Shown one piece after another: positions 27,623-58,935 of a stretch of DNA of 64,000 bases. Source of the stretch: Lingula anatina (Eukaryota; Animalia; Brachiopoda); the NCBI GenBank assembly GCA_051362555.1, contig CM120642.1, forward strand, positions 19,902,001 to 19,966,000. Reading direction: 5' to 3'. The notes under the pieces are model-generated. The model made no database searches and was not told the DNA's origin. It saw only the letters and a program-made list of their open reading frames with translations. The translations under genes were made by a program, and so were the position numbers. Position 1 is the stretch's first letter, and each line of letters begins with the position of its first letter.

Positions 27623-27697
<75 letters not shown>
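27623..27697. repeat. (TA)n microsatellite
   Basis: Pure dinucleotide run. Confidence 0.95.
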
Positions 27698-27699
<2 letters not shown>

Positions 27700-28067: not shown

Positions 28068-30344
28068 TCACAATAAGCTGTTTGAAACTGTTACTACAGG
28101 TGTTGCAACATAGGTGGCATTTTTAGTTGATGTGAACGTATTCATGTTAATAGATGTAGAAGATGTGATATGACCTGGTGACTTCTTTCTGAAATAATTT
28201 CGATAACGATGCAATGTTGACTTTTTCATAATGTAAGAAAAGCAAATAAAAGCACCTTGCAGACAGGAAAATACGTAAAAGAGATACCACATAAATATTA
28301 GACTTGTAAATGCAGCGATGAACGCAAAGATCCACCCAAAACCCATTAACGTTGATAGTTTACAATAAACAAGAAACTGGTTGTAATCTGGACCACAACG
28401 TTCAACACTAGGTACAGGTCGTAAGGCAATAGCAGTCCTAATGAAGAATCCAAGTTGTAGCAGAATAGTTATTCCAACGGGCAGAGCGAAACTGTAGGCA
28501 AGTGCCGCAGTGCTGCCTATCCAACATGATGAAATACCTGTGCCGTAGCCTATCGAAACACTACTGCATTCACAAAACTCAAGAACAACACACGGGATAA
28601 CGATAACTAATGGAGAGCAATAGCTTATCAGGCAGTATATGATGTGCCACTTACGAATGTCTGAAGAATCAAACTGGGCAATACTAAAGGGATAAGTAAA
28701 CGTCCAACACATATGAAAAGCACATACAGTCATCCAAGCAAATGAACAAAGCCACCAGTAATGCATCACAATAGCAAACGCTTTACAAACAACATTGTTT
28801 TGAGAGGGTACATAATTAAGGAGAAACAATAACTGTGCAAGCATCAGGGTGACGCAGAGGTTGAATGAATTTTTTCCCGGGAGACCCTTTCTCAAGTCTG
28901 TAAACAACAGATAGGTGATAATTGTAAAAACCAAGCAAAGGACAGACATTGAGAGAAGACTATAGGAAACAATTACCTGCACAAGAATATATGAAGATTC
29001 CGGGGTTCTGTTTCCCTTATCTTTTAAGTAGTCGTCTACACAGATAAGAACCCCCTCCTCGTCTTTAATAAAGTCGGACTGATTCAATTTCAACCCATTT
29101 ACTGACAATGTAATCATGTTATCGTCTCCAGTGAACTCAGACCTGTTAAGACGCACTCTACTACAGTTCAGGGTGTCTTCTGAAATCTTGGTAACATTTG
29201 GTAAATGGCGATTGTCCTTATTTTGCCCAAATCGTGGTGCGTCAAAATTGGGGATTGCGCTGATTGGTTTTCCATTTATATCGAAACCTGTAAAGCTTGA
29301 GCTTGGTTTGCTTTGCCCTAATGCAATAGTATACGTTTCTGATTTTGGAAAGGAAAGATTATAGCTCTCGAATGAAATACAGAGCATGCAAGGAAATAGA
29401 AAACATGGGCGGGCGGATTTCTTTGAAGAAAAAGAATAAAATTGCATATAAAATGGTACTTCTGTTGCCAACGAAAGAAGCTCTACGTTGCTAAAATTCA
29501 GATGCAAAGTCGCGACTGTTGTTTCCAAAGAAGAGCTAGACTTGATGACAGTTTGTTGTTGATAACCAATCACAAAGGAAACATTTGTAAAATGTGCCGT
29601 TGGATCGACTGATTCCATGTTATTGCCAAATCTTCTATGAAAGAAAAAGGAAATTTCAGAATTTTCGGAAAACATAAGACGCATACCAAGGGCTTCGAAA
29701 TGAAGCAAAATATGTCTTATGAAATATCTTTCTGTACCAAGCATGATATTAAATGGTTGAAAATCCATTGAAGAATTTGTCTCTATTTTCCACGTTCCTG
29801 TCAGCCAGATACTGTTTTCTGGGAGCCCATGTCGAGTGACGACACTGATGTTCAAATTACTGAATTCCCACGCCATCCTCAGATGTTGACTAAATCTTGA
29901 CTCTATCTGCCTAGCAACAGACGATGATACACCCTTCCAGATTGCTGATCCTGTGATATAAACCGCGCTCGCTTCATTTGATGTATGCGTTGTGGTCAGA
30001 AAAGGATAACTACACAGTGTGATGCCGTTGGATTGGACTCCAATTATGCTTGTGTGAATAATCTGTGGCTCAAATCTACAACTAATGGCATCATCCTCAA
30101 AAGCACTGTCTTTGTGCTTTGTATATATGCAATTCACCTCATCAGGAGCTATTTCACCTGCTGCTGTGGATATGTTGTGAATTAGATCCTTGCACAAGAC
30201 TGGATGCGTTGCGTCAACGGAAAAAGCATAAAGTTTCACGGGCACCTTAAAGCTGCAATTCAGATTGATTTCAGGAAACTGGTCAATGCAGTCTGTACCA
30301 CTGGGAATCATGCCGGCTGGACAAATGATTTTTCTGCATTCCTC
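28068..30344 (-). CDS. GPCR copy 1 exon 2 (variable ectodomain plus 7TM)
   Basis: 747-aa ORF plus 11 upstream codons to the ttacag acceptor. Confidence 0.92.
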   Translation of the reverse strand, partial: EECRKIICPAGMIPSGTDCIDQFPEINLNCSFKVPVKLYAFSVDATHPVLCKDLIHNISTAAGEIAPDEVNCIYTKHKDSAFEDDAISCRFEPQIIHTSIIGVQSNGITLCSYPFLTTTHTSNEASAVYITGSAIWKGVSSSVARQIESRFSQHLRMAWEFSNLNISVVTRHGLPENSIWLTGTWKIETNSSMDFQPFNIMLGTERYFIRHILLHFEALGMRLMFSENSEISFFFHRRFGNNMESVDPTAHFTNVSFVIGYQQQTVIKSSSSLETTVATLHLNFSNVELLSLATEVPFYMQFYSFSSKKSARPCFLFPCMLCISFESYNLSFPKSETYTIALGQSKPSSSFTGFDINGKPISAIPNFDAPRFGQNKDNRHLPNVTKISEDTLNCSRVRLNRSEFTGDDNMITLSVNGLKLNQSDFIKDEEGVLICVDDYLKDKGNRTPESSYILVQVIVSYSLLSMSVLCLVFTIITYLLFTDLRKGLPGKNSFNLCVTLMLAQLLFLLNYVPSQNNVVCKAFAIVMHYWWLCSFAWMTVCAFHMCWTFTYPFSIAQFDSSDIRKWHIIYCLISYCSPLVIVIPCVVLEFCECSSVSIGYGTGISSCWIGSTAALAYSFALPVGITILLQLGFFIRTAIALRPVPSVERCGPDYNQFLVYCKLSTLMGFGWIFAFIAAFTSLIFMWYLFYVFSCLQGAFICFSYIMKKSTLHRYRNYFRKKSPGHITSSTSINMNTFTSTKNATYVATPVVTVSNSLL

Positions 30345-33075
30345 CTGTAAGTGTAGACAACCTATGCATTATTTTCGTGTTGAATTTAAAGAAAGGGTGC
30401 TTTTATTTAAATGTACATAGATATCGATCAAACACTCTCACTCCAATATAGACTAAATACCCATTGTAACGTGGTGGACAACGTTAAGATAATCATCATG
30501 TTAAAACATTTAACGTTCTTGGACAGTCAAAACGCCTTTATTTCCTCAAATTCAATAAATCTATCTACATTGCTAACCTAAATATAATTTGTCATTGTAG
30601 ATTATTTCTACTGCTCCTCATTTTTCAAAACAAGAATCGGTACAGGCTGTCGTATCTTTTTTCATTGTGGCATATAAAGCACTGACACAAGATAGAGCTT
30701 TGGATTTCACTACATCTACAAAAGCATTAAATATAACTCTATTATTTCCCTGGCCAGTGTGTACTTTACAGAGACGAATACACGAGAGAGGTTGATGGTT
30801 TATACTATTCATTTTTAAACTAAATAAGAAACTTCTATATGGACATGTTAACATTACAATATTTACAAAATTATCAATTAGTAAATGGAGAGGGTAAAAA
30901 TACAAACACAAAAAGATTCGATAAAACAAGTTTAAGCACACCACAAAATAATCTTTGAAAAAATAATTAGCACACGTATGCACTGTGAAATAAATAAATA
31001 TGGCAGGCCTAAAGAAATAAAACATGAATTTAAGAAACGCAATAAAACAAATTATTTGTGTTAAACATTTCCACAAAAAATTATAATTAATTAAAATACC
31101 CACTATTTATGCCTTTTGTTATTATTTTTATGTTAAACATTTCTTCGTGACCGGAAGTTTCAAACTTGGGCAAGAGGTTAATAATGATATTAATAATCAT
31201 AATAAGAAAACAGCGTTATCGCTGACAAAGTACAATCACAAAATAGAACACATAGCAGAAAATAAAAAAGTAAGTCGAAAGCTTTAACTTTGCACGGTGG
31301 GCAGGACTTGTAGCGAACATCTCTCTGACTTAGGTTGAGGATACGAAGACGACAGTGGATGAAACATAATCATATAACCTTAATATTCCGTAATCGTCCG
31401 TTAGAAGATAAAGACGGGCATAGCTTGATCGTGCAGTAACAGAGAGAGAAACTTCAAAATACAATATGTTTGAGACAGGAACCAAACGCGTTCCTCCTAA
31501 ACTGGCCGTCTACAAAGGTTGGCAAGGTGAATGAGGATAAAAGCTAGCAAATCAACATAAGTATATTGAGGAATGAGAAAAAGGATGAGATGCGACATAC
31601 AAGTTCCCTGGGCATGCGTAATAATAAATCTTCATGTCTGAAGATTTGTTTTATTCACCAAATATACAGGTACGAATGTATGAATTATCAAAACTATACC
31701 AGTCGTGTCAACACAATACACAATGAACACCACTACTTACGTATCCTTGTCTTTTAATGTATCCTGCCGGACATCCCTCTTGTATGTTCCTTTCACGATC
31801 TGTTTCAATTCTGATATCCGGACCAAAATCCATCATCATAGAAAAGGGTCGGATGCCTTCAGTATCCGGAAGTTTACCAGGCCCGGCATTAGTCTGTGTG
31901 TCCTGTATCATCTGTGGACAAATTAGACTGTTTTTCTCAAGGATTATACCATTGCACGTGGCGCAATGAGGATTAGCAAACAGGCCGAAAGTTGACCACA
32001 GTTTTGATCTCTCGTCAGGACAATACCCAGAACAAATTGGTCTCGTAATTGGGGAGGGATTGTCTGGTTTTATTTCAAGGTCGACTGGATAAGAAACAAG
32101 TGTTGTTGACACCGTCGTCGTGGTCGAAGTCGTTGGCGTTGTAGAATACAGAGGAGGTGGCATCCCTCCTACAACCCACTGGTTATATGCTTCACATTGC
32201 TCCCTCTCATTGTCATCATACTGCTCCCAAAGGCCTGTAACGTTGCAAGTTTGGATAAGGTCTCCATATTCAAAAGGTTGAAATTGCGCCATCCATTCTT
32301 CATACCATGAATCTACTGATGAGAAATCTACGGTAATGATGTCAGAATTTTTGCTGATATTTGTCCTACACACGTGCATATCACCTTCCATATGAGAGCG
32401 GTGTTTAAACAAAATTGAACAACTCGGCAAAGATGCTATTTGTCTCAACAAAGAAAGTTTGTCCGTGGAATTTCTGGGCAATGAATCGATTATGTCAGGC
32501 GATTTGCAATGAAAAAAAAGTAGCCAGGGCTCTATATCTGTATCATTGTGACAAACAGCACAGTAAAGATTTCTATACACCAGACGACTTGTCTTGGACC
32601 AGACTGGTAGGTCTTTTTTCGGATCTAGATCGGTTGTTCTGCCTGCTTTGAAACATTCCATGGAGGTAATATTGTCGGTATTTGGCAGGCAAGATGTAAT
32701 CATCTTCACCGCGTTTGGCATGCCTGGCAGAGTCACACACGACGTCTCGTTTCTCTTATTCTTGACATTTTTTAACCTCCTTATTTCAATTTCTGGTGTA
32801 TTAAAAGCGACATCATAACAACAGTCACCGTAAGCCATGCAGGTTTCCGGGGCACAACTACAGTAAGGCGAAACGCTTCCGCAAGAGAAAGTGTTGTTAA
32901 TCAGTGGACATAACCTGTTAATTACCTCACGTCGGTCCAGGGTTTCCCGAAAGAGCAGCGATTCTTGCGGTGATGGGAAGCTATTACTGGTGTTCACTAT
33001 AAGACAAAAATGAAAGCACAACAGAAGTCGCAGTAGAGAGCAAAACATGTTGCTAGCTATGAGGCGGACGTCCAT
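28068..33075 (-). CDS. Class B (secretin/adhesion-like, Methuselah-type) GPCR with SMB-like/Cys-rich ectodomain, copy 1; exons 33075-31741 and 30344-28068; 1203 aa
   Basis: Signal peptide; CSCAPETCMAYGDCCYD (SMB-like); YRNLYCAVCH and FANPHCATCNG modules; phase-0 intron (QGY|gtaagt...ttacag|EEC); 7TM motifs LPGKN, HYWWL..F.WM, CWI, KLSTLMGFGWIF, LQGAFI; no GPS motif seen. Confidence 0.88.
31741..33075 (-). CDS. GPCR copy 1 exon 1 (signal peptide, SMB-like, Cys-rich)
   Basis: 455-aa ORF; donor gtaagt at 31740. Confidence 0.9.
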
Positions 33076-35206: not shown

Positions 35207-35540
35207 TCATGCTAAATAGTCCTCCAAGGTGGGAGGATCTAGTTCAAAGTACCGACTCATCTGATTGCCATACACACAGGTATGGCAGTTGACCAGAAGA
35301 CAACCTACCAAGTAGTGCTTGGCTACAGGAGACAACAGAACTTTTAAATTCTTTCGAAATTCCAGGAAGGCAAAGTTTCACAATAAGTTTCCGAACTCCC
35401 ACTCGACGCATTCCCGCACAGTGGACATTCTCCTGTTGAATTCTTCTTCTTCGGCACTCATATTTGCTCCTCTGAAGGAACTCAACAAATACCTTTTAAC
35501 CGGGTAAGCCGGATCTCCATAAATTGCGTATGCAAGACCA
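35207..35540 (-). pseudogene. Harbinger (HARBI1-like DDE) nuclease C-terminal remnant
   Basis: AIYGDPAYP...FNRRMSTVRECVEWEFG..*..FAFLEFRKNLK...CHTCVYGNQMSRYFELDPPTLEDYLA*; a convergent plus-strand ORF2-like tail (YLKDK..FEKERFE) lies at ~34860-35041. Confidence 0.8.
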
Positions 35541-35597
35541 TTCCAAAATTACCTAACCTGTCCAATGGCGTATGACCTCATTTAACGTCTCTTCATA

Positions 35598-40041: not shown

Positions 40042-40101
40042 TTAAAATAATGTGACGTGAATTTTGATTCTGATAACGGTGCATTTCCCAATAAACAGGC
40101 T

Positions 40102-42369
40102 TCAAACAGCAACTTCAGGCACCGTAATATAGGTGGCGCTCCGTGCGTTTTTAGCTGATGTCAGTGTAGTCATGCTCATATTTGTAGTAGATGAGATATG
40201 ACCTGGTGTCTTATTTCTGCAGTAATTTCGATACCGTTGCAATACTGACTTTTTCATAATGTATGAAAAGCAAATGAAAGCACCTTGCAGACAAGAAAAT
40301 ACGTAAAAGAGATACCACATAAATGAGAGACTTGTAAATGCAGCGATGAACGCGAAGATCCACCCAAAACCCATTAACGTTGATAGTTTACAGTAAACAA
40401 GAAATTGGTTGTAATCTGGACCACAACGTTCAACATTAGGAACAGGCCGTAAGGCAACAGCTGTCCTAATGAAGAATCCAAGTTGTAAGAGAATAGTTAT
40501 CCCAACAGGCAGAGCGAAACTGTAGGCAAGTGCCATAGTGTTACCTATCCAACATGACGAACCTCCTGTGCCGTAGCCTATCGAAACACTGCTGCATTCA
40601 CAAAAGTCAAGAACAACACACGGGATAACGATTACTAATGGAGAGCAATAGCTTATTAGGCAGTAGATTATATGCCACTTACGAATGTCTGAAGAATCAA
40701 ACTGGGCAATACTAAAGGGATATGTAAACGTCCAACACATATGAAAAGCACATGCAGTCATCCAAGCAAATGAACAAAGCCACCAGTAATGCATCACAAT
40801 GGCAAACACTTTACAAACAGCATTGTTTTGAGAGGGTACATAATTAAGGAGAAACAATAACTGTGCAAGCATCAGGGTGACGCAGAGGTTGAATGAATTT
40901 TTCCCGGGAAGACCCTTTCTTAAGTCTGTAAACAACAGGTAGGTGATAATTGTAAAAACCAAGCAAAGGACAGATAGAGAGAGAAGACTATAGGAAACAA
41001 TCACCTGCACAAGAACAGAAGAAGATTCGGGAGTCCTATTTCTCTTTTCTTTTAAGTAGACGTCTACACAAATGAGAACTCCCTCCCCGTCTTTTATAAA
41101 ATCAGTCTGACTCAATATCAACCCATTTACTGACAATGTAATCATGTTATCGTCTTCAGTGAACTCAGACCTGTTAAGACGCACTCTGCCACAGTTCAGG
41201 GTGTCTTCTGAAATCTTGGAGACATTTGGTAAATGGCGATTGTCCTTATTTTCGACAAATCGTGGTGCGTCAAAATTGGGGATTGGGTGGATTGGTTTTG
41301 CACTTACAGTGAAACCTGTCAAGCCTGAGCCTGGTTTCCCTTGCTCTAATGGGAAAGTGTACGCTTTTGATTTTGGAAAGGAAAGATTATAGCTCTCGAA
41401 TGAAATACAAAGCATGCAAGGAAATCGAAAACATGAGCGGGCATTCTCCTTTGAAGAAAAAGAATAAAATTGCATATAAAATGGTACTTCTGTTGCCAAC
41501 GAAAGAAGCTCTACGTTGCTAAAATTCAGATGCAATATCGCGACTGATGTTTCTAAAGAAGAGCTGGACCTGATGACACTTTGTTCCTGATAGCCAATCA
41601 CAAAGGAAACGTTTGTAAAATGTGCCCTTGGATCGACTGATGCTGTGCTATAATCATATCTTCTCTGAAAGGAAATTTCAGGGTTTTTGAAGAACATAAG
41701 ACGCATACCAAGGGCTTCGAAATGAAGCAAAATATGCCTTATGAAATATCTTTCTGTACCAATCAGGATATCAGATGGTTGAAAATCCATTGAAGAATTT
41801 ATCTCTATTTTCCACGTTCCTGTCAGCCAGATCCTTTTTTCTGGTAGGCCATGTCGAGTGACGACACTGATGTTCAAATCACTGAATTCCCACGGCATCC
41901 TCAGATGTTGACTAAATCTTGACTCTATCTGCCTAGCAACAGACGATGATACACCCTTCCAGATTGCTGATCCCGTGATATAAACCGCGCTCGATTCATT
42001 TGATGTATGCGTTGTGATCAGAAAAGGATAACTACACGTTTTTATGCCGTTGGATTCGACTTTCATAATTATGCCTGTGTGAATAATCTGTGGCTCAAAT
42101 CTACAACTAATGGCATCATCCTCAAAAACACCGTATTTGTCCTCTGTATACGTGCAGTGGACCTCATCGGGAATAATGTTAGCTGATATTGTAGATACGT
42201 TGTAAATTAGATCTTTGCACAAAACTGGATGCGTTGCGTCAATGGAAAAAGCATAAAGTTTCACGGGCACCTTAAAGCTGCAATTCAGATTGATTTCAGG
42301 GAACTGGTCAATGCAGTCTGTACCACTGGGAATCATGCCGGCTGGACAAATTACTTTTCTGCATTCCTC
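40102..42369 (-). CDS. GPCR copy 2 exon 2
   Basis: 744-aa ORF with 7TM; acceptor ttacag. Confidence 0.92.
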   Translation of the reverse strand, partial: EECRKVICPAGMIPSGTDCIDQFPEINLNCSFKVPVKLYAFSIDATHPVLCKDLIYNVSTISANIIPDEVHCTYTEDKYGVFEDDAISCRFEPQIIHTGIIMKVESNGIKTCSYPFLITTHTSNESSAVYITGSAIWKGVSSSVARQIESRFSQHLRMPWEFSDLNISVVTRHGLPEKRIWLTGTWKIEINSSMDFQPSDILIGTERYFIRHILLHFEALGMRLMFFKNPEISFQRRYDYSTASVDPRAHFTNVSFVIGYQEQSVIRSSSSLETSVAILHLNFSNVELLSLATEVPFYMQFYSFSSKENARSCFRFPCMLCISFESYNLSFPKSKAYTFPLEQGKPGSGLTGFTVSAKPIHPIPNFDAPRFVENKDNRHLPNVSKISEDTLNCGRVRLNRSEFTEDDNMITLSVNGLILSQTDFIKDGEGVLICVDVYLKEKRNRTPESSSVLVQVIVSYSLLSLSVLCLVFTIITYLLFTDLRKGLPGKNSFNLCVTLMLAQLLFLLNYVPSQNNAVCKVFAIVMHYWWLCSFAWMTACAFHMCWTFTYPFSIAQFDSSDIRKWHIIYCLISYCSPLVIVIPCVVLDFCECSSVSIGYGTGGSSCWIGNTMALAYSFALPVGITILLQLGFFIRTAVALRPVPNVERCGPDYNQFLVYCKLSTLMGFGWIFAFIAAFTSLSFMWYLFYVFSCLQGAFICFSYIMKKSVLQRYRNYCRNKTPGHISSTTNMSMTTLTSAKNARSATYITVPEVAV

Positions 42370-44982
42370 CTGTAAATATAGACAACTTGTGCATTATTTT
42401 AGTGATGGATTTAATTTAAAGCAAGGATGATGTTGCTTTTATACGCTGACTGCGTTTTAGAAGGCGAAAATAAACACATTTGAAAAAGATTTCGTAGATT
42501 ATTGCTACTGCTCCTCATTTTTCAAACAAGAGTCGCTACACGCTAGCTAGTTTTTTCATTTGGTATATAAACATTGACACAAGAGAGAGCTTTTGATTTC
42601 ATCTGCAAAAACAAATTTTACTATATTATTCCCCTGGCCAGTGTGTACTTAACATAGACGAAAGCAAAGGACAGACTGATGGTTTATACTATTCATCATT
42701 TAGACTGAATAAGGCGATTTTACATGGATATGTTAACGAAATATATACATTTGTAAATGGAGAGGGTAAAAAATACAAATGCAAATAGGAAGCTAGATGA
42801 GATAAGTTTAAGTGCAGCACAAAATAATCTTTAAGAAATTATTAAGCACACGTATACACTGTCAAATAAATATATATGGCAGGAGCCTCAAATTTAGAGA
42901 AACAGTAACATAATATTACTAGACAAATTGTTTTACTGAAAATTTTGACCTTAATAAATAAAACAAATTTTGCAAATATTTGTGTTTAACATTTTCCACG
43001 AAAATGTATAATAAATTGAAATACCCACTGAACTGTATGCGTAATTATGCCTTTCTGTAATTAATTCTTATGTTACACATTTCTTCGTGACAGGAAATTT
43101 CAAACTTGGGAAAGAGATAAATAATATAATTAATAACAATAAGTAAACAAAAAATATATACAGTCACAAAATAAGAACACAGCTGAAAATTAAAAATTAG
43201 TCAGAAACTTAAACTCGGCCTTAAACTTAAACCGGTCGGACTGGTAGAGAAATCCTGTCTGACTTAAGTTGAGGAGGACGAAGACAACAGTAAATGAAAC
43301 ATAATCATTTAACCTTAATATTCTGTATCTGTTAGAAGATAAAGACGGGCAAAGTTTAATCGTGCAGTAACAGAGAGAGTTACTTCAAAATACAATATGT
43401 TTGAGACTGTAACAAAACGCGTTGCTCCTGAACTCGCCGTCTACAAAGGTTGGCAAGGTGAAAGAGAGTAAAAGCCAGCTTATCAACGAGGGTGCATTGA
43501 AGAATAAGAAAAAGGATGAGAGGCGACATACAAGTACCCTGGCCATGCGTAATAAATAATCTTTATGGCTGAAGATTTGTTTCATTCACCAAATATACAG
43601 GTACTCCTGTATGAATTATCAAAACTTTGTCAGTCGTTTCAACACGATACACAATGAACCCTACAACTTACGTATCCTTGTCTTTTGGTGTATCCTGCCG
43701 GGCATCTCTCTTGTATATTCCTTTCACGATCTGTTTCAATTTGGAAATCTGGACCAAAATCCATCAGCATAGAAAAAGGTTGGATACCTCCAGTATCCGG
43801 AAGTTCTTTATCCTCGGAAAACCTCTGTGTGTCGTGTATGATCTGTGGACAAATTAAACTGTTTTTCTCAAGGATTATACCATTGCACGTGGCGCAATGA
43901 GGATTAGCAAATAGACCAAAAGTTGACCACAGTTTTGATCTCTTATCAGGACAATATCCAAAACAAAATGTTTTCGTAATTGGTGAGAGATTGTCTGGTA
44001 TTATTTCAAGGTTGATTGGAAGATAAGTAAGCTCTGTTGTTGACATCGTCGTCGTGGTTGAAGACGTTGTCGTTGTAGAATACAGACGAGGTGGCAACCC
44101 GCCTACAACCCATTGGCTATATGCCTCACATTGGTCCCTCTCATTGTCATCATACTGCTCCCAAAGGCCTGTAACGTTGCAAGTTTGGATAAGGACCTCG
44201 TACTCAAATGGTTGAAATTGCGCCATCCATTCTTCATACCATAAATCTACCGATGAGAAATCTATGGTAATGATGTCAGAATTTTTGCTGACATTTGTCC
44301 TACATACGTGCATATCACCTTCCATATGAGAGCGGTGCTTAAACAAAATTGAACAACTCGGCAAAGATGCTATTTGTCTCAACAAAGAAAGTTTGTCCGT
44401 GGAATTTCTGGGCAATGAATCGATTATGTCTGGCGATTCGCAGTGAAAATTAAGTAACCAGGGTTCTATATCTGTATCATTGTGACAGAAAGCGCAATAA
44501 AGATTTCTATACACCAGACGACTTGTCTTGGACCAGACTGGTAGGTCTCTTTTGGGGTCTATATTGGTTGTCCTGCCTGCGTTGAAACATTCCATGGAGG
44601 TAATATTGTCGGTATTTGGCAGGCAAGATGTAATCATCTTCACCGCGTTCGGCATGCCTGGCAGAGTCACACACGACGTCTCGTTTCTCTTATTCTTGAT
44701 ATTTTTTAACCTCCTTATTTCAATTTCTGGTGTATAAAAAGCGACGTCATAACAACAGTCACCGTAAGCCATGCAGGTTTCCGGGGCACAACTACAGTAA
44801 GGCGAAACGCTTCCGCAAGAGAAAGTGTTGTTAATCAGTGGACATAACCTGTTAATTACCTCCCGACGGCTCAGGGCTTCTCGAAAGAGCGGCGATTCTT
44901 GCGGTGATGGGAAACTAGCACTGGTGTTCACTAAAAGGCAAAAATGAAAGTACCACAGAAATCGCAGTCTTGAACAAAACAT
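40102..44982 (-). CDS. Methuselah-type class B GPCR copy 2; exons 44982-43672 and 42369-40102; 1192 aa
   Basis: Paralog of copy 1 with the same splice sites; first ATG at 44982 (MFCS). Confidence 0.88.
43672..44982 (-). CDS. GPCR copy 2 exon 1
   Basis: SMB-like/Cys-rich ORF; donor gtaagt. Confidence 0.9.
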
Positions 44983-47728: not shown

Positions 47729-49981
47729 TCAAACTTCAGCAACAAAGGGGGCTCCTCTTGCGTTTTTAGCTGATGTCAGTGAAGTCATGCTCATAGATAC
47801 AGTAGATGAGTTATGGCCTGGTGACTTCTTTCTGCAATAACTTCGATACCGATGCAAAGTTGACTTTTTCATAATGTATGAAAAGCAAATAAAAGCACCT
47901 TGCAGACAGGAAAATACGTAAAAGAGATACCACATAAATGAAAGACTTGTAAATGCAGCGATGAACGCAAAGATCCACCCAAAACCCATTAACGTTGATA
48001 GTTTACAGTAAACAACAAATTGGTTGTAATTTGAACCACAGCGTTCAACTCTAGGAACAGGCCGTAAGGCAATTGCAGTCCTTATGAAGAATCCAAGTTG
48101 TAGGAGAATAGTTATCCCAACGGGCAGAGCGAAACTGTAGGCAAGTGCCATAGTGTTACCTATCCAACATGATGAACCTCCTGTGCCGTAGCCTATCGAA
48201 ACACTGCTGCATTCACAAAAGTCAAGAACAACACACGGAATAACAATTACTAATGGAGAGCAATAGCTTATTAGGCAGTAGATGATATGCCACTTACGAA
48301 TGTCTGAAGAATCAAACTGGGCAATACTAAAGGGATATGTAAACGTCCAACACATATGAAAAGCACATGCAGTCATCCAAGCAAATGAACAAAGCCACCA
48401 GTAATGCATCACAATGGCAAACACTTTACAAACAGCATTGTTTTGAGAGGGTACATAATTAAGGAGAAACAATAACTGTGCAAGCATCAGAGTGACGCAG
48501 AGGTTGAATGAATTTTTCCCGGGAAGACCCTTTCTTAAGTCTGTAAACAACAGGTAGGTGATAATTGTAAAAACCAAGCAAAGGACAGATAGCGAGAGAA
48601 GACTATAGGAAACAATCACCTGCACAAGAACAGATGAAGATTCGGGAGTCCTATTTCTCTTTTCTTTTAAGAAGTCGTCTACACAAATGAGAACCCCCTC
48701 CCCGTCTTTAATAAAGTCGGACTGATTCAATGTCAACCCATTTACTGACAATGTAATCATGTTATCGTCTCCAGTGAACTCAGACCTGTTAAGACGCACT
48801 CTACTACAGTTCAGGGTGTTTTCTAAAATGTTAGTGACATTTGGTAAATGGTGGTAGTCTTTATGTTGTACAAATCGTGGTGCAGCAAAATTGGGCATTG
48901 CATGGATTGGTTTTGCGTTATCAGCGAAACCTGTGAAGCTTGAATCTGGTTTGCTTTGCCATACTGCGATGGTATACGTTTTTGATTTTGGAAACGATAG
49001 ATTATAACCATCGAATGAGATACAGAGCATGCAAGGAAATAAAAAACATAGACGGGCATTCTCCTTTGAAGAAAAAGAAATTAATTGCATATAAAGTGGC
49101 ACTTCTGTTCCTAATGAACTGAGCTCTACGTTGCTAAAATTCATATGCAAAATCGCGACTGTTGTTTCCAAAGAAGAGCTGGACTTGATGACGTTTTGCT
49201 GTTGATAGCCAATCACAAAAGAAATGTTTGTAAAACGTGCCGTTGGATAGTCTGATTCCGTGCTATAGCCAAATCTCTGAAAGGAAATTTCAGGGTTTTT
49301 GGAAAACATGAGACGCATACCAAGGGCTTCGAAATGAAGCAAAACATGTCTCATGAAATATCTTTCTGTACCAATCATGATATTAGATGGTTGAAAATTC
49401 CTTGAAGAATTTATCTCTATTTCCCACATTCCTGTCAGCCAGATCCTGTTTTCTGGTATACCATGTCGAGTGACGACACTGATGTTCAAATCACTGAATT
49501 CCCACGGCATCCTCAGTTGTTGACTAAATCTTGACTCTATCTGCCTTGCAACAAACGATGATACACCATTCCAGATTGCTGATCCTGTGATGTAAACCGT
49601 TCTCGATTCATTTGATGTATGCGTTGTGGTCAGAAAAGGATAACTACACTTTTTCTTGTCGATGACTTCGACATTTGGAATACTGACTGTGCGAATTATC
49701 TGTGGCTCAAATCTGCAACTAAAGGCATCATCCTCAAAAACACTGTCTCTTTGCTCTGTATACATGCAATACACCTCATCAGGAGCTATTTCACCTGCTG
49801 CTGTGGATATGTTGTGAATTAGATCCTTGCACAAGACTGGATGCGTTGCGTCAACGGAAAAAGCATAAAGTTTCACGGGCACCTTAAAGCTGCAATTCAG
49901 ATTGATTTCAGGGAACTGGTCAATGCAGTCTGTACCACTGGGAATCATGCCGGCTGGACAAATGATTTTTCTGCATTCCTC
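47729..49981 (-). CDS. GPCR copy 3 exon 2
   Basis: 739-aa ORF with 7TM; acceptor ttacag. Confidence 0.92.
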   Translation of the reverse strand, partial: EECRKIICPAGMIPSGTDCIDQFPEINLNCSFKVPVKLYAFSVDATHPVLCKDLIHNISTAAGEIAPDEVYCMYTEQRDSVFEDDAFSCRFEPQIIRTVSIPNVEVIDKKKCSYPFLTTTHTSNESRTVYITGSAIWNGVSSFVARQIESRFSQQLRMPWEFSDLNISVVTRHGIPENRIWLTGMWEIEINSSRNFQPSNIMIGTERYFMRHVLLHFEALGMRLMFSKNPEISFQRFGYSTESDYPTARFTNISFVIGYQQQNVIKSSSSLETTVAILHMNFSNVELSSLGTEVPLYMQLISFSSKENARLCFLFPCMLCISFDGYNLSFPKSKTYTIAVWQSKPDSSFTGFADNAKPIHAMPNFAAPRFVQHKDYHHLPNVTNILENTLNCSRVRLNRSEFTGDDNMITLSVNGLTLNQSDFIKDGEGVLICVDDFLKEKRNRTPESSSVLVQVIVSYSLLSLSVLCLVFTIITYLLFTDLRKGLPGKNSFNLCVTLMLAQLLFLLNYVPSQNNAVCKVFAIVMHYWWLCSFAWMTACAFHMCWTFTYPFSIAQFDSSDIRKWHIIYCLISYCSPLVIVIPCVVLDFCECSSVSIGYGTGGSSCWIGNTMALAYSFALPVGITILLQLGFFIRTAIALRPVPRVERCGSNYNQFVVYCKLSTLMGFGWIFAFIAAFTSLSFMWYLFYVFSCLQGAFICFSYIMKKSTLHRYRSYCRKKSPGHNSSTVSMSMTSLTSAKNARGAPFVAEV

Positions 49982-52883
49982 CTGTAAATATAGACAACTT
50001 ATTTACAATTTAAAGAAAGGAAGTTGTTACTATAATACGGTGACTGCGTTTTAGAATGTGAAAATAATTATTTGAAATAAGGTGTGTTTCCAGATTTTGT
50101 ATTCACTGGCACGATACATTACCAGTTTTCCTAATTATTAAATCAGAAACGATGACATCATCTCAAATGCAGAATGAAACAACCAGTAGTTTGTGGTCGC
50201 ATCGCCATTTCAACAAACAATACGCAATATATTTTGTACATTATTTCTTAATTTTTACCACTTAAGTTTGAAACTCTATAGAAATCAAACATTTCATTTC
50301 AGTAAAGACTAAATATCTATAGTAACATGGTTAACAACACAAAGTTCATTATCAGAATAAAATTTAAACGTTCAAGCGTTCTGAGAGAGTCAACAATTAA
50401 TCTACCATTGTGGTTTATTGCTACTGCTACTCATTTTTCAGAACAAGATGCAGTACAGTCTAGTGTAGTTTTTTCATCGCGTTATGGCACACAAACATTG
50501 GTACAAGATAGAGTTTTGAATATCACCACACCTCCAAAGACATAAAATTTTGCTATGATATTTCCCTGGCCAGTGTGTACTTTACAGAGGTGAATAGACG
50601 AAAAGAAGATGCAGGCTGACGGTTTGTAAAATTTATTAAAACAAAACTAAATAAGAAGCTTTAATATATAAGACTTTAATATATAGACATGTTAACATTA
50701 CAAGACGTATTACATGTATATTACTTTGTAAATGGTGAAAATAAAGATCCAAATACAAATAGGAAGCTAGATTAGATAAAACGAGTTTAAGTGGAGCACA
50801 AAATAATCTTTGAAAATAAGTTAGCGCACGTATACACTGTGAAATATACATATAAGGGAAGCAGTATAGTAACATAATATTACTACACAAATGCTGGTAT
50901 TGAACATTTTGACTTAAAGAAATAAACCATAAATTTACGGAACGTATTAAAACAAAATACCTGTGTTAAACATTTTCCACGAAGGAGTAATAAAAATGCA
51001 ATTAATTGTATAATTATTCCCTTTTGTTATAAATTGTACATGTTATGTTGTACATTTCCTCGTGACAGGAAATTTTCAAACATGGGAAAGAAAAGAAGAA
51101 GAAGAATATTTAGCGGAATCTTTAACTTTGCACGTCAGTTAGAACTGGTATCGAAGCCCTGTCTGACATACGTTGAGGAGGCCAACATCAAATGAAGTAA
51201 AATCGCATAATAGTAATATTCTGTTATCATAGCTCAATCGTGCAGTGCCAGAGAGAGAAACTTCAAAATACAATATGTTCGAGGCAGGAAGTGGCCGTCT
51301 TCAAAAGTGGGCAACATAAATGAGAGTAAAAGCTAGCTAATCAATGAGGGTACATTGAAGAATGAGAACTAAAGATGAGAGGCGACATACAAGTACCTTG
51401 GGCATGCGTAATAAATAATCTTCATGGCTGAAGACTTGTTTTATTCACGAAATATACAGGTACTTATGTATGAATTATGAAAACTAGGCCAGTCGTTACA
51501 ACACGATACACAATGAACCCTACAACTTACGTATCCTTGTCTTTTAATGTATCCTGCCGGGCATCCCTCTTCTATATTCCTTTCACGATCTGTTTCAATT
51601 CTGAAATCTGGACCAAAATCCATCAGCATGGAAAAGGGTTGGATGCCTTCTGTGTTCTTTGACTCAAAAACCCTGTCAACAGGCTGTGTGTCCTGTATCA
51701 TCTGTGGACAAATTAGACTGTTTTCCTCAAGGATTATACCATTGCACGAGGCGCAATGAGGATTAGCAAATAGGCCGAAAGTTGACCACAGTTTTGATAT
51801 CTCGTCAGGACAATTCCCATTACAAAATGTTCCCGTAATTGTTGGGGAATTGACTGGTTTTATTTCAAGGTCGATTGGAAAATAAACAAGTTCTGTTGTT
51901 GACATCGTCCGCGTGGTTGAAGTAGTTGTGGTTGTAAAATACAAACGAGGTGGTAACCCTCCTACAACCCACTGGTTATATGCTTCACATTTCTCCCTCT
52001 CATTGTCATCATACTGCTCCCAAAGGCCTGTAACGTTGCAAGTTTGGATAAGATCCCCATATTCAAAAGGTTGAAATTGCGCCATCCATTCTTCATACCA
52101 TGAATCTACTGATGAGAAATCTACGGTAATGATGTCAGAATTTTTGCTGACATTTGTCCTACACACGTGCATATCACCTTCCATATGAGAGCGGTGCTTA
52201 AACAAAATTGAACAACTCGGCAAAGATGCTATTTGTCTCAACAAAGAAAGTTTGTCCGTGGAATTTCTGGGCAATGAATCGATTATGTCAGGCGATTTGC
52301 AATGAAAAAAAAGTAGCCAGGGCTCTATATCTGTATCATTGTGACAAACAGCACAGTAAAGATTTCTATACACCAGACGACTTGTCTTGGACCAGACTGG
52401 TAGGTCTTTTTTCGGATCTAGATCGGTTGTTCTGCCTGCGTTGAAACATTCCATGAAGTTAATATTGTCGTCGTTGGGCAGACAAGATGTTATCATCTTC
52501 ACCGCGTTCAGCATGCCTGGCAGAGTCACACACGATGTCTGGTTCTTCTTATTCTTGATATTTTTCAACCGCTTTATTTCAGCTTCTGATCCATTAACAG
52601 TGACATCATGGCAACAATCACCGTAAGCCATGCAGGTTTCCGGGGCACAACTACAGTAGGGGGCAACGCGTCCGCAAGAGAAAGTATTGTTAATCAGTGG
52701 ACATAACCTGTTTATTTCTTCCTTATGGTGAAGGGTCTCTCGAAATAGCGGCGATTCTTTTTTGCTTTCCGCCAGTAATGCTGATGGTATTGATAAATTT
52801 ATACTGGTCTTCACTAAGAGACAAAAATGAAAGCACCGCGTTAGTGAGCACAACATGCTGTTAGCTGTGTGTCGAACGTCCAT
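47729..52883 (-). CDS. Methuselah-type class B GPCR copy 3; exons 52883-51531 and 49981-47729; 1201 aa
   Basis: Paralog with the same two-exon structure; first ATG at 52883 (MDVR). Confidence 0.88.
51531..52883 (-). CDS. GPCR copy 3 exon 1
   Basis: SMB-like/Cys-rich ORF; donor gtaagt. Confidence 0.9.
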
Positions 52884-54486
52884 AGAATTCAAATGTGCTG
52901 GATAGCAGCTTTAAAAACCAATGCGTGCGTCATGGAAGTAGATAATTAACCGTCAGAAATGAACATAAGGGATGTAAAGATTCACTTTAGTTCAGCTACC
53001 TTTCAATCATTCTATTCTCCAATTGTCCATTTACTTGACAAATGATGTTCGGATAATATGTCAATTTAATGAGCGGCAAATGTTGGATATATCAAAATAA
53101 CATGTTTCCTTTTCTATCACGAAACTAATCTGAGTGCAATGCTTTTATTAAAAGCGCGTTATGCAAGAAATTAAATTGGTCACGGTTCTCTGTGATTAAG
53201 TTTGTTGTAGAACGTGAAATGACTCACCAAATAAGATTACATATCACTTTTTCATGCACCGAATTAAGTGCATGCGTTGTTGATAAGAAAGTTAACGACA
53301 AGCGCTAAAACTGAATGTTTTTATTCTAAAGTAATATGCATGTATATCGACATTCCAAACCCAAGTACAGTACATCAGTCCTGATCAATGCTAAAGTGTG
53401 CTTCTCGCCAGACTTCAGGTACAATGAGATATGTAAAAGTTCACCATTTCTATGGGTGATTGCACTGTAATAATTGATATGCTTAATTTTTAATGCTCTT
53501 GACTACTGAAACCCAACGCCAAATGCCAAGTACTTATGGCTATAAGTATAAATAGTCCTGAACCCTGTACAAAGTGTGTTTGGTGATAAGTATCATTTTA
53601 TGTTTGGGTGACAAGGGTCGTTTCTACTCAAAGATACCTTAAAAGAAAAACGTCAATATATAATTACAGTTATATAATTACAGCGATTGGTAATCAATAC
53701 TAAGAATTATCTCTTTGGAAACAAAGGATACTTCAAGTTCCTTTCCAGATAGTCACTAGTTTCCTTTACATTTCAAAATCACCAAACAAACTCATTCAAA
53801 GTTTACATTGAAAAAAGCAGTTGGGTACTTTTTGTAAGCATTTCATTAGTACATTGAATTAGAAAAAATACACATATATTGTATATGTAAGCCTGCTATC
53901 CAAAAGACAAATGAAAATTATAACGTGGATTTGCGAAAATTGTTTATCTTTGTCATCTGGGTATAAGCATTTTGGTAAAAAAAACTATATTCACATTAAT
54001 TGAGAGTCTCAGCTCCACAGACAAATGTAAATAATAAGATGGAGTGTCGAAAATTGTTTTTCTATGTCCCTGTCATCTGAATATACGTTTAAATCGTTCG
54101 ATAAAAGCCTTTTCCCAGCCGTCGCGTGAAGCATGATTAAAGGACCCATTCCCATTAATTAAGTCAGTACTTAATAGGCGTTCCCCTGCCGTGGGAAAAA
54201 TTTATCACCTTGTTTACTAACAGCCAGAAACCGTTATGTAATTGATAATAACCCAAAAAGAACTCTTGGCAGATATACTAATTGGTCCGTAATAATGAGA
54301 TCTAAAACAGTACAGATAGGATATTTAAAATGCTACCCTGTGCTTGTCTCCAGACACAAATATTAAACTCTTCAAATGACGAATCTCTCAAATAAAAGTA
54401 AATGCAAAAGCATCAACATGCAGTGAAAAATTAGCAATATTGAAATAATGTGACATGATAACGGCGCATTCCCCAAAAAACAGGCT

Positions 54487-56745
54487 TCAAACAGCAACTT
54501 CAGGCGCTGCAACATAGGTGGCGCTCCGTGCGTTTTTAGCTGATGTCAGTGTAGTCATGCTCATAGATGTAGTAGATGTTATATGACCTGGTGACTTCTT
54601 TCTGCAATAATTTCGATACCGTTGCAATACTGACTTTTTCATAATGTATGAAAAGCAAATAAAAGCACCTTGCAGGCAAGAAAATACGTAAAAGAGATAC
54701 CACATAAATGAGAGACTTGTAAATGCAGCAATGAACGCAAAAATCCACCCAAAACCCATTAACGTTGATAGTTTACAGTAAACAAGAAATTGGTTGTAAT
54801 TTGAACCACAACGTTCAACACTAGGAACAGGCCGTAAGGCAATAGCAGTCCTAATGAAGAACCCAAGTTGTAGGAGAATAGTTATTCCAACGGGCAGAGC
54901 GAAACTGTAGGCAAGTGCCATAGTATTACCTATCCAACACGAGGAACCTCCTGTGCCGTAGCCTATCGAAATACTGCTGCATTCACAAAAGTCAATAACA
55001 ACACACGGGATAACAATTACCAATGGAGAGCAATAGCTTATTAGGCAGTATATGATATGCCACTTACGAATGTCCGAATAATCAAACTGGGCAATACTAA
55101 AGGGATATGTAAACGTCCAACACATATGAAAAGCACATGCAGTCATCCAAGCAAATGAACAAAGCCACCAGTAATGCATCACAATAGCAAACACTTTACA
55201 AACAGCATTGTTTTGAGAGGGTACATAATTAAGGAGAAACAATAACTGTGCAAGCATCAGGGTGACGCAGAGGTTAAATGAATTTTTTCCGGGAAGGCCC
55301 TTTCTCAAGTCTACAAACAACAGATAGGTGATAATTGTAAAAACCAAGCAAAGGACAGATAGCGAGAGAAGACTATAGGAGACAATCACCTGCACAAGAA
55401 CATGTGAAGATTCGGGAGTTGTATTACTCTTTTCTTTCAAGTAGTCGTCTACACAAATAAGAACCCCCTCCCCGTCTTTAATAAAGTTGGACTGATTCAA
55501 TGTTAACCCATTTACAGACAAGGTAATTATGTTACCGTCTCCAGTGAACTCAGACCTGTTAAGACGCACTCTACTACAGTTCAGGGTGTCTTCTGAAATC
55601 TTGGTGACATTTGGTAAACGGCGGTCTTGTTTATTTTGTACAAACTGTGGTATCTCGAAAACATTCATGGCGACGGACAATCCCGGATTTAAAGCAGAAA
55701 CTCTGTATTTCGAATCTGCTCTGCTTTTGCTTGCCATTATATTAGATTGCTTTGAATTTAGAATGGAAGAGTCACAACAATTAAATGATGGACATAAAAT
55801 GTACGGAGATGTAGGACATAGTAAGTTGGTCTGCTCTGAAACAGGATAATGCACAAAGTAAGGCATATCCATAGTTAGAGAACTTAGTACTATATTACTA
55901 AGATATACGCGTACCGTCCCATATGTTGTTTCTAAGGAAAAATTGCCATCGATAAAATTTTGCTTTGCGTATTCAAGAGTAAATGAAATGTTTGTGAAAC
56001 TTGTCGTCAAATGGCCTGGTTTCCTGTTGGTTGTTTTTTCTACACTAATTTGATTTGAACTAGGACCTTCGGCAAAAATAAGACTAACTCCAAGGGATTC
56101 AAAATGATGTAAAAGGTGGCCTAGAACACACCGCTCTGTCTCATTAATCCTGTTGTGCATAGGGGATTGCAAGGTCGAATTTAATTCTATTGTCAACGTT
56201 CCTGAAATGGAGATATAGTACTCTGGCAGCTTATGCCTGACGACGACTTTGTTGATCAAGTCCCTAGAGTCCCATGGTTTCTGCAAATGTTCGCCAAAAC
56301 TTGATTCAATCGCACTCGCAGCAGACGACGAAATAGCTTTCCACAACGCGGAACCAGCCAGGTAAATGTTGTTCTGCTCATTCAGTGGCAGCGTTTTAGA
56401 TAAAAAAGGTTGTGCACACGCCTGATATATAATACGTGTTTTAAAGATGCCAATAAGGACAATAAGTGGCTCCAATTTACAACCATAAGTATCACCATTG
56501 GATACTTTTCCCCTGTCTTCTGTGTATTCACATTGGATTTCGTCTGGTATACTGCCACCAGCTGCGTTGGCTATGCTTTCAATTAGATCCTTACACGAGA
56601 CTGGATGGGTTGCGTCAACGGAAAAAGCATAAAGTTTCACGGGCACCTTAAAGCTGCAATTCAGGTTGATTTCAGGGAACTGGTCAATGCAGTCTGTACC
56701 ACTGGGAATCATACCGGCTGGACAAATGATTTTTCTGCATTTCTC
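54487..56745 (-). CDS. GPCR copy 4 exon 2
   Basis: 741-aa ORF with 7TM; acceptor ttacag. Confidence 0.92.
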   Translation of the reverse strand, partial: EKCRKIICPAGMIPSGTDCIDQFPEINLNCSFKVPVKLYAFSVDATHPVSCKDLIESIANAAGGSIPDEIQCEYTEDRGKVSNGDTYGCKLEPLIVLIGIFKTRIIYQACAQPFLSKTLPLNEQNNIYLAGSALWKAISSSAASAIESSFGEHLQKPWDSRDLINKVVVRHKLPEYYISISGTLTIELNSTLQSPMHNRINETERCVLGHLLHHFESLGVSLIFAEGPSSNQISVEKTTNRKPGHLTTSFTNISFTLEYAKQNFIDGNFSLETTYGTVRVYLSNIVLSSLTMDMPYFVHYPVSEQTNLLCPTSPYILCPSFNCCDSSILNSKQSNIMASKSRADSKYRVSALNPGLSVAMNVFEIPQFVQNKQDRRLPNVTKISEDTLNCSRVRLNRSEFTGDGNIITLSVNGLTLNQSNFIKDGEGVLICVDDYLKEKSNTTPESSHVLVQVIVSYSLLSLSVLCLVFTIITYLLFVDLRKGLPGKNSFNLCVTLMLAQLLFLLNYVPSQNNAVCKVFAIVMHYWWLCSFAWMTACAFHMCWTFTYPFSIAQFDYSDIRKWHIIYCLISYCSPLVIVIPCVVIDFCECSSISIGYGTGGSSCWIGNTMALAYSFALPVGITILLQLGFFIRTAIALRPVPSVERCGSNYNQFLVYCKLSTLMGFGWIFAFIAAFTSLSFMWYLFYVFSCLQGAFICFSYIMKKSVLQRYRNYCRKKSPGHITSTTSMSMTTLTSAKNARSATYVAAPEVAV

Positions 56746-58935
56746 CTGTAAATATCAATTATAGTATTAATACCATGCATAATTATCCCCCAGAAGTTAC
56801 AGCAGGAATAGAAATTAACCAAAGAGAAGTTCAAAAACTGTATTTGGTCTAATATGTAATAATATGAACAATGGATACACATTTTAACTTTTTAGATTTC
56901 TGTCACAATGACTTTAAACTAACTTTTCATGTTTTGTCCTATATTTTGTATATCAGCAACCCATTTTACTCCCTCTAATAAATTTCACCCTAAGGTGTTT
57001 ATTAAGATATTGTTTGATGTAGTTACATATATTTGAAAACATGCTGCAATTACTGTAAACAACATAAGATGTCTTATAGATTTTATTAAATCACACCTTA
57101 TATTTCGAGCTATATGTTTATGCACTGTAGTAGGGAAGTGAAGAAAGTCAAGGATTTTTTATCGGCAATATCATCCTTTTGAGTGTATAAAAACCGTGCC
57201 ATGAAATACCAGTGGAACTCAATATATAAAAAATATCACCTTGGTGAAAACAAATTTAGGTTTTGTACAGTAACAATATGCATGTGGACTTGCACCATAC
57301 TAAAACACATAAAAAATGGAGGAACAGGGAAAAAGAAAATAAATTCAATACCGCCTTAATTCTCTATGTAAATTCGGGTTTTGGATATTTGTTTAAGCAC
57401 CAAAAATTCATTCTGAAAAATAGTGTTTCCTTGTATTGAGTAGAATAGGTACTTTTGAGTCTTTCAGATATAAATCTTAAATGCATGTTGTATTTGTTAT
57501 TTAATTTTGTCAAAGAATGTTTAGACTTTTTCATCATTACTGGTTTTCTGGATACATGCCCCCTCATATGTGTAGAACTAAAAACAACCCGTTTGTTGCC
57601 ACAAGATACAGAGGGAACACAATGACTTACGTATCCTTTTCTTTTGACATATCCTGCTGGGCATCCCTCTTGTATAATCCTCTTGCCGGCGGCTGCCATT
57701 TTGAAATCTGGGCCAAAATCCATCAGCATTGAAAACGGTTGAACGCCTGAAAGTACCCTATTGCTGAAAGATGTGTGCGCCTCACGTATGTTTGCTTTTG
57801 CCTGTGGACATATTAAGCTATCGTTTCGAAGGATAACGCCATTGCACAGCGCACAATCAACGTTAGCGAATAAGCCAAATGATGACCACATGTGTGAACG
57901 CTCATCGGGACGGTATTCAGTAAAAATCATTACTGTCTCCATTTTGGGGACTTCTGTCGTTGACTCCGATACCGGTGGGGTGGAATTCGTGGCAGAAAAC
58001 AGATTAGGTGGTAACCCTCCGACTACCCACTGATGATATGCACCGCATCTGGCTATCTGTTCTTCGTCATAGTTCTTCCAAAGACCTGTCACGTTGCAAG
58101 TTTGAATAAGATCGCCATATTCAAAAGGTTGAAATGGCGCCATCCACTCTTCGTACCATAAATCTACCGATAAGAAGTCCACGGTAATGTTGTCAGAATT
58201 TTTGTTGGCATTTGTCCTACACATGTGCATATCACCCTCCATATGAGAGCGTTGCTTAAACAGAATTGAACAACTCGGCAAAGATACAATTTGTCTCAAC
58301 AAAGAAAGTTTGTCTGTGGAATTTCTGGGCAATGAATTGATTACGTCTGGCGATTTGCAGTGAAAATTAAGCAGCCAAGGCTGTATCTCTGTATCATTGT
58401 GACAAAGAGCACAGAAAAGATTTCTATACACCACACGACTTGTCTTGGACCAGACTGGTAGGTCTCTTTTGGGGTCTATATTGGCTGTTCTACCCGCGTT
58501 GAAACATTCCAAGGAGGTAATATTGTCGGCATTTGGCGGACAAGACGTTACCATTTTCACCGCGTTCGACATACCTAGCAGAGTAACACACGACGTTTGG
58601 TTCAACTTATTCTTGTTATTCTTCAACCTCCTTATTTCAGCTTCCGAACCATTAAAAGCGACATCATGACAACAATCTCCATAAGCCATGCAGGTTTCCG
58701 GGTCACAACTGCAGTAGGGCGAATCATCTCCGTAATGTCCGCAAGAGAAAGTGATATTTATCAGTGGACATAGCCTGTTTATTTCTTCCTCGTTTCTGTG
58801 AAAAATTCGCAGGAGGTGTGGTAAATCATTTTCGTCTTCACTTGATGATGATAGGTTAGTTTTCACAGCACTGCCAACGTTCACAAACGCACAAACATGC
58901 AAGTACCAAACTAAAGCCCTGTTTGAGAGAAACAT
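54487..58935 (-). CDS. Methuselah-type class B GPCR copy 4 (most divergent); exons 58935-57631 and 56745-54487; 1187 aa
   Basis: Same architecture and splice positions; divergent mid-ectodomain and a shorter, dissimilar intron. Confidence 0.88.
57631..58935 (-). CDS. GPCR copy 4 exon 1
   Basis: SMB-like/Cys-rich ORF; donor gtaagt. Confidence 0.9.

Follow-up and report, generated by a model that had tools for sequence, protein, structure and literature searches.

Four receptor genes that lie head to tail on the minus strand of the brachiopod Lingula anatina encode intact proteins of 1187-1203 amino acids, each with a nearly uniform seven-transmembrane (7TM) domain and, far upstream of it, a short conserved motif resembling the tethered agonist, or Stachel, of adhesion G-protein-coupled receptors (GPCRs). 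The genes span positions 28068-58935 of the window, by which we mean the whole 64,000-nucleotide stretch analysed (assembly GCA_051362555.1, contig CM120642.1, positions 19,902,001 to 19,966,000). Our proposal, which draws largely on structure models and which we could see falling either way, is that the four receptors may signal via a built-in tethered agonist, with a copy-specific loop before the motif setting the trigger. Judged from the same models, they would most likely work like adhesion GPCRs without being members of that family. What is new here is the predicted tethered peptide in receptors free of a GAIN domain; the array by itself belongs to a known kind. The sole close database protein is L. 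anatina RefSeq XP_013385466.1 (P0001), 98.4% identical to copy 3 and with an identical splice junction; it was treated as an allele of copy 3, and residue numbers of the models are those of P0001.

The motif, (Q/R)PFSM(L/M)MDF, stands directly after the variable loop in all four copies. It reads QPFSMLMDF in copy 1 (57715..57741), copy 2 (51615..51641) and copy 3 (43756..43782, residues 397-405 of P0001, predicted to be docked in the 7TM pocket), and RPFSMMMDF in copy 4 (31825..31851), all on the minus strand. The first-pass annotation of this DNA had used PFSM, part of the motif, as a landmark, and its likeness to a tethered agonist had gone unremarked. According to Qu et al. 2022 (PMC9046087), the tethered agonist of adhesion GPCRs follows the pattern TxFAVLM, with F3, L6 and M7 buried against helices 1, 2, 3, 5, 6 and 7 as well as extracellular loop 2 (ECL2), and cleavage is dispensable for tethered agonism. 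Scored against TxFAVLM, the motif ranks first among the 844-862 ectodomain 7-mers of each copy (4/4 copies); it lies 488-492 amino acids from transmembrane helix 1 (TM1), not immediately N-terminal to it. Among 7TM relatives from outside Lingula and octopus, the segment after the last Cys repeat is the best ectodomain match in 16 of 35, and in the whole set, where independence is lacking among 5 Lingula and 20 octopus rows, it is the best match in 31 of 60 against 8.1 expected by position; 5 proteins in which no Cys repeat precedes the TM region were left out of the ranking, and its relatives were retrieved with a query that contained the motif, their best-matching stretches lying mostly elsewhere.

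Two different predictors place this motif in the pocket of the receptor that carries it. In the AlphaFold2 (AF2) model of P0001, built from a 74-row alignment with a mean predicted local distance difference test score (pLDDT) of 62 and a predicted TM-score (pTM) of 0.53, residues 395-407 form a confident island of about 71-73 pLDDT, with a helix at 399-402 and disordered linkers on either side. The AF2 weights used predate the Stachel structures of 2022. When the model was superposed by VIA on known structures, 21 of 31 adhesion-GPCR rows began at model residue 395-398; the best row, 7ept, reached a Z of 30.7 and a root-mean-square deviation of 2.5 over 267 of 272 aligned residues, and among the other rows the nine with an aligned chain range from TM1 began at 884-890 and one began at 406. 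Q397 is aligned with ADGRD1 545 and ADGRF1 567, the first stalk residues in PMC9046087. This pairing makes F399, L402 and M403 come to lie at Stachel positions S3, S6 and S7, a register that rests on the start point together with the ESMFold2 contacts, because VIA gives only the first and last aligned residues.

ESMFold2, run as a complex without an alignment, placed peptide 378-412 on residues 822-1150 with a score of 0.65 in three runs, against 0.02 for the best of three controls, at a contact agreement of at least 79% and a partner pLDDT of at least 55. The mark applied to these scores was passed by 51 of 78 solved microbial pairs (2 of 108 for mismatched ones) and by 39 of 65 novel eukaryotic pairs (2 of 126 for unrelated ones), neither benchmark being on peptides. 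The predicted contacts of F399 are L896, F939, F1121 and Y1122 (TM1, TM2 and TM7), those of L402 are W963, W1040 (ECL2) and F1051, and those of M403 are W1103 and A1106. At 30 positions of the pocket and core, copies 1, 2 and 4 and P0001 share the same residue in 29 cases, the exception being 885 (V or I); across all copies 28 of the 30 are uniform, and W1103, F1121, C1039 and G1129 are kept in all 24 other family members.

Taken as a mechanism, these predictions would mean that each receptor takes up a conserved internal peptide of its own in its 7TM pocket, in the manner of the adhesion-GPCR Stachel, with the peptide's F, L and M occupying S3, S6 and S7. The peptide might switch between a sheathed state, in which it is a beta-strand of the ectodomain (as modelled for an octopus relative), and the docked state. 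An extracellular protease that cuts the loop could throw this switch, as could a partner or a force acting on the ectodomain, and the copy-specific loop, perhaps together with an insert further downstream, would set the trigger.

The loop that precedes the motif comprises 22 residues in each copy (minus strand, copies 1 to 4: 57742..57807, 51642..51707, 43783..43848 and 31852..31917), with a fast core at 43795-43824 and a pLDDT below 50 in copy 3. Both site models and an intron test were applied to copies 2-4 only, since the copy-1 intron is unalignable. Alignment columns 408-417, a 10-residue stretch of the loop before PFSM, alone outrun the intron rate (P 2e-4 under independent and identically distributed sampling, 0.026 by block bootstrap), and the exon-2 patch and the remaining patches stay within the intron substitution rate. 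Nucleotide differences in the loop are distributed 22/18/10 over codon positions 1/2/3, so that 40 of 50 fall at positions 1-2. Model M2a is preferred over M1a (likelihood-ratio test, LRT, 15.2, p 5e-4; LRT 11.4 with four segments), with a p of 0.03 when multi-nucleotide changes are included. The ratio of nonsynonymous to synonymous substitution rates (dN/dS) is 0.42-0.56 for the whole ectodomain and 0.45-0.83 for the insert. The description of the ectodomain as hypervariable was thus overstated: it holds for a loop that evolves faster than the intron, mostly at codon positions 1-2, and not for an ectodomain with the dN/dS just given. A frameshift or indel origin of the loop difference was ruled out, as a free DNA alignment has no gaps there.

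Between copy 3 and the RefSeq allele there are 15 substitutions and one gap of 4 residues, all outside the pre-PFSM patch and the exon-2 patch quoted by the first-pass annotation; the loop is thus the same in both, and in this sole available comparison it is specific to the copy. A locus for allorecognition, highly polymorphic between alleles in these patches, would suit the tandem, mosaic, surface-receptor layout. We regard that earlier suggestion as scarcely credible, given patches that stay unchanged between the two alleles and nine DNA runs that contain 60-84% of the words of copy-2 exon 2. Across 14 octopus paralogs the homologous loop is the least conserved stretch of 15 columns (0.08; next 0.18). 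Octopus and Lingula copies form separate groups in a quick unrooted tree of 55 rows, each with a Shimodaira-Hasegawa-like approximate likelihood-ratio (SH-aLRT) value of 100, and the octopus expansion appears to be independent of that in Lingula. A loop that is the fastest part in two expansions would fit a specificity site, and equally a disordered linker (pLDDT below 50). Two predicted proteins, P0008 and P0010, are fusions of two similar receptor copies, and within each of them the pre-motif loop of one half is unlike that of the other.

A number of observations weigh against a tethered agonist with a trigger loop. In the AF2 model of the octopus receptor P0127 (mean pLDDT 83) the motif (269-274) is a beta-strand of a hairpin in the ectodomain, and all 50 VIA rows of this model leave it out; because the octopus motif is undocked, docking is seen in one of two AF2 models. 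This mismatch has three readings that the models cannot tell apart: the Lingula docking may be an artefact of a poor ectodomain, octopus receptors, with their more divergent motif and two more divergent pocket residues, may differ, or the two models may represent docked and sheathed states, the sheathed Stachel of adhesion GPCRs being likewise a beta-strand (PMC9046087). The ESMFold2 pass may reflect memory of solved Stachel complexes and would then speak for likeness, not binding. A conserved hydrophobic beta-strand motif would be kept anyway, and a motif tethered at both ends, about 490 amino acids from TM1, is unlike any described Stachel. As regards the loop, one segment of the intron diverges as much as the loop does, and the loop's homologs vary in length from 5 to 26 amino acids across the family, as a plain linker would. 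No protease site is common to the four loops. Set against a fast-neutral class, the M2a signal misses significance (p 0.05-0.08), and it falls to p 0.20 after columns 407-416 are dropped, that is, it depends on 10 codons of one loop. General positive selection on the ectodomain was ruled out by this single-loop dependence and the whole-ectodomain dN/dS; the general diversifying selection expected by the first-pass annotation was therefore not borne out by the dN/dS and site-model analyses that it had called for. Finally, expression of the array is low in the sampled RNA, with a handful of reads, and none of them is spliced in five RNA runs, of each of which 6-25% was read.

These points bring up an ordinary lineage-specific tandem expansion of Methuselah-like receptors, in which the motif is a structural strand of the ectodomain, the loop a relaxed linker and the ligand a diffusible peptide, and in which conversion and purifying selection yield a uniform 7TM. 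We take this to be a possible, if not a probable, account. The octopus strand agrees with it, as do an ectodomain dN/dS below 1 with a fragile selection signal, the published repeated expansions of Mth/Mthl (de Mendoza et al. 2016, PMC4768249) and the group-4 Mth-like genes of octopus, which are tandem, lack selected sites and have a homogeneous omega of 0.306 (Ritschard et al. 2019, PMC6408891). It leaves unexplained why two different predictors should recover the exact F/L/M register of solved tethered agonists, and why the loop should keep one length in 4/4 copies and have 40 of its 50 nucleotide differences in the first two codon positions. Were the docking artefactual, what remains would be just such a tandem expansion with gene conversion.

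That the array couples variable ectodomains to a constant signalling module was confirmed, with a pairwise identity (six pairs) of 94.0-98.0% in the 7TM against 65-87% in exon 1 and 50-82% in the exon-2 ectodomain; partial homogenisation by exchange had been overlooked. The 7TM has a dN/dS of 0.08-0.17 between copies, and the site models find no selected class in it (p 0.63). Synonymous divergence (dS) of copy 1 from the others is high in the insert (1.17-1.25) and the linker region (0.8-1.1) and low in the 7TM (0.16-0.21) and where exon 2 starts (0.12-0.23), and the copy-1 intron can no longer be aligned to those of the other copies. Moreover, each of the three possible trees is favoured by some blocks of the 114 informative sites (36 runs, p 1e-4). 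Because dS is patchy and the favoured tree switches blockwise, we infer that the copies exchange sequence and that the 7TM of the old duplicate has been overwritten. As far as sequence comparison can tell, the uniformity of the 7TM is due to purifying selection and partly to homogenisation via exchange among copies. If the tethered-agonist mechanism holds, the 7TM need not differ between copies, and exchange can therefore keep it uniform with loop and insert remaining copy-specific. At alignment columns 226, 252 and 258 the P0001 allele, not copy 3, holds three copy-1 residues within 33 columns, possibly a recent conversion tract.

Such a pattern has precedents. For TLR1/TLR6 and EMR2/EMR3/CD97, PMC2077338 describes conversion that evens the membrane or signalling part of neighbouring paralogs, the sensing part (TLR1/TLR6 and EMR2) or other regions diverging; those receptors are unrelated or distant, and our own reading comes from four paralogs in one assembly. 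These precedents, in which the signalling part is converted and the sensing part diverges (again TLR1/TLR6 and EMR2, PMC2077338), would also suit a diversified recognition family, in which each copy binds its own foreign or environmental ligand via the somatomedin B (SMB) and DUF8401 domains, the loop and the insert, and passes it to a common 7TM with no tethered peptide. Bearing on this is the insert, an array-specific stretch of about 370 amino acids (copy 3, 41200..42306, minus strand; equivalents at 55585-56682, 48815-49918 and 29172-30281 in copies 1, 2 and 4), which is the most divergent domain (41% identity between copies 1 and 3) and has escaped homogenisation. Its patches are no faster than the intron, its dN/dS is that given above, and hhalign, the atlas and the AF2 model reveal no known binding fold in it, so that we consider a recognition family of this type unlikely. 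HMMER found no homolog of the insert among 111 ectodomain relatives, and hhalign matched it neither to the relatives' own inserts (probability 0.2) nor to an internal repeat; its best atlas value, 0.80, is at chance level, its pLDDT in the P0001 model is below 50, and the equivalent stretch measures 0-180 amino acids in 25 aligned relatives.

As to family membership, the domain order of the four proteins is signal peptide, SMB-like domain, two DUF8401-type Cys repeats, 22-residue loop, motif, Cys knuckle, insert of 366-370 amino acids, pre-TM domain, 7tm_2 and a short tail. The Pfam 7tm_2 domain is matched above its cut-off (E 2e-19 to 4e-19). The DUF8401 (PF28443) repeats come from precomputed annotation of P0001, with top atlas matches of 0.95-0.97, and the protein lies in the atlas among 7tm_2 and DUF8401 (and SMB) clusters of molluscs, cnidarians and arthropods (0.94-0.97). 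Somatomedin B itself was matched in copy 1 at E 0.026, under the Pfam cut-off, and not in copy 4 or P0001; its Cys pattern is present. Among the 111 relatives returned by the HMMER ectodomain search, the best stretch fell in the SMB/DUF8401 part for 110 and at the pre-TM end for one (P0088). Pfam gave no GPS or GAIN match in the exon-2 proteins of copies 1 and 4 or in full-length P0001, and the copies show no C.C.HLT motif before TM1. Nor did Pfam find on P0001 an HRM domain, unlike in secretin-type (class B1) hormone receptors, or, at E<=1, a Methuselah_N domain, as is expected outside arthropods (PMC4768249). A structural search for a GAIN fold returned lists taken up by 7TM matches, the insert standing at a pLDDT below 50. 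By sequence and by fold, adhesion GPCRs are the nearest solved 7TMs, and the B2-type traits of a TM6 Trp, a TM7 QG and an ECL2 CW are present. Octopus DUF8401 relatives bear the NCBI name Mth-like. Taken together, the copies are probably SMB/DUF8401/7tm_2 (Methuselah-like) receptors. The earlier assignment to a class-B or adhesion-type 7TM lacking a GPS accordingly agrees with the 7tm_2 match and the missing GPS/GAIN matches, and the Methuselah-like kinship with the atlas clusters and the Pfam architecture. A viral fold library searched with an octopus receptor returned 7TM matches only, headed by AMV261, a 7TM protein of an entomopoxvirus (E 3.6e-9 and, on the target, a TM-score of 0.52).

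Several known systems help to place these receptors. Non-arthropod Mth/Mthl receptors lack Methuselah_N, in some cases carry SMB and have expanded repeatedly (PMC4768249). Like them and the 7tm_2 and DUF8401 clusters, the Lingula copies combine a 7tm_2 domain, a weak SMB, DUF8401 repeats, no Methuselah_N, no GPS and a lineage-specific expansion; unlike them, they have an insert of about 370 amino acids without a homolog, and the main text of PMC4768249 describes no internal tethered peptide. The octopus group-4 expansion (PMC6408891) likewise consists of tandem paralogs with a matching domain order, and the 14 octopus Mth-like proteins with the least conserved loop may belong to it. Octopus receptors differ in having no such insert, a more divergent motif (xxLTILFN), no conservation at the equivalents of W1118 and Q1128 and one undocked model. 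With adhesion GPCRs and their Stachel (PMC9046087, PMC13197933), the Lingula receptors share the F-x-x-L-M register and predicted pocket contacts with helices 1, 2, 3, 5, 6 and 7, ECL2 and the TM6 Trp. On the other hand, they have no GAIN/GPS match, their motif lies about 490 amino acids before TM1 (about 110-300 in most relatives), and it is tethered on both sides unless cut. Protease-activated receptors, for their part, belong to class A and carry near the N-terminus a tethered ligand that is exposed by a cut. By analogy, the Lingula receptors might share this logic of a cut that exposes a ligand.

The array itself was described correctly in the first-pass annotation: all four genes are intact and head to tail, with open frames, no internal stops and two coding exons each, separated by a phase-0 GT..AG intron of 885-1549 nucleotides after a conserved Gly-Tyr, and all eight quoted patch sequences were found exactly as noted. 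Copy 1 (1187 amino acids) has its exon 1, with signal peptide, SMB-like domain, two DUF8401-type Cys repeats, variable loop and Stachel-like motif, at 57631..58935, and its exon 2, with the Cys knuckle, a 366-residue insert, the pre-TM domain, the 7TM (54649-55395) and the C-tail, at 54487..56745. The exons of copy 2 (1201 amino acids) lie at 51531..52883 and 47729..49981 (7TM 47879-48625), those of copy 3 (1192 amino acids) at 43672..44982, with the splice junction of XP_013385466.1, and 40102..42369 (7TM 40264-41010), and those of copy 4 (1203 amino acids) at 31741..33075 and 28068..30344 (7TM 28236-28982), all on the minus strand; in copies 2 and 4 the next Met, 9 codons in, may be the start. 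Each protein has 54-56 Cys residues. A fifth-copy remnant at 26424..27235 (minus strand) retains the upstream region and the first codons of exon 1, followed by stops. The intergenic blocks 36664-38544, 45992-47677 and 53357-54441 took part in the gene duplications and are mosaic as well (67-91% identity).

Beyond this assembly, run X10, a divergent sample under the same species label that was aligned to 26000-45900, yields contigs about 87-92% identical over the exons of copies 3 and 4, from which the array is likely present in a related lineage. P0088, a 351-amino-acid 7TM protein in the Lingula clade with a copy-4-like tail and 33-44 differences from each window copy, is likely a further paralog or a divergent allele. 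Among the RNA runs, X15 provided 14 mapped reads, 10 of them at an identity of at least 99%, on the exons and 3' flank of copy 1 and the 7TM regions of copies 2 and 3; the first mate was always on the plus strand, which fits minus-strand RNA in most stranded libraries. At 85% identity X16 and X17 gave similar traces, not assignable to copies and none on copy 4 exon 2, and X12 and X18 (polyA/oligo-dT) gave repeat reads almost exclusively. Elsewhere in the window, 2563-25164 (minus strand) holds scattered exons of a multi-exon transporter gene with a weak CitMHS match, presumably an SLC13-like carboxylate/sulfate transporter; a reverse-transcriptase open reading frame at 11742-13367 (minus strand) and a broken transposase at 18184-19263 (plus strand) we take to be a LINE-type element and a Tc1-like transposase, respectively. 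An open frame of 241 amino acids at 62449-63171 (minus strand) contains imperfect repeats of about 10 amino acids rich in Thr, Asp and Cys and has no convincing Pfam match.

Our literature search, thin on subscription papers and without supplements, found no account of a tethered peptide in Methuselah-like receptors, and nothing on this Lingula array in a literature whose subscription papers and supplements mostly lay outside the search. In class B, tethered agonism is ascribed to the GAIN domain. A broader idea, which we offer tentatively and think rather doubtful, is that the SMB/DUF8401 Methuselah-like orphans, widespread in invertebrates, might constitute a second, GAIN-free family of tethered-agonist receptors, with an internal Stachel sheathed as a strand and freed when proteases cleave a bait loop that evolves fast; arrays in tandem like the present one would then be repertoires of protease sensors with one output, built up in parallel in brachiopods and octopuses. 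If true, an internal Stachel without a GAIN domain would give many invertebrate orphan receptors a ready agonist, and deorphanising them could be possible with a synthetic 7-9-mer. Such a Stachel would, in addition, have implications for the origin of the adhesion-GPCR mechanism, and would explain how an array can keep one uniform 7TM while only the loop changes.

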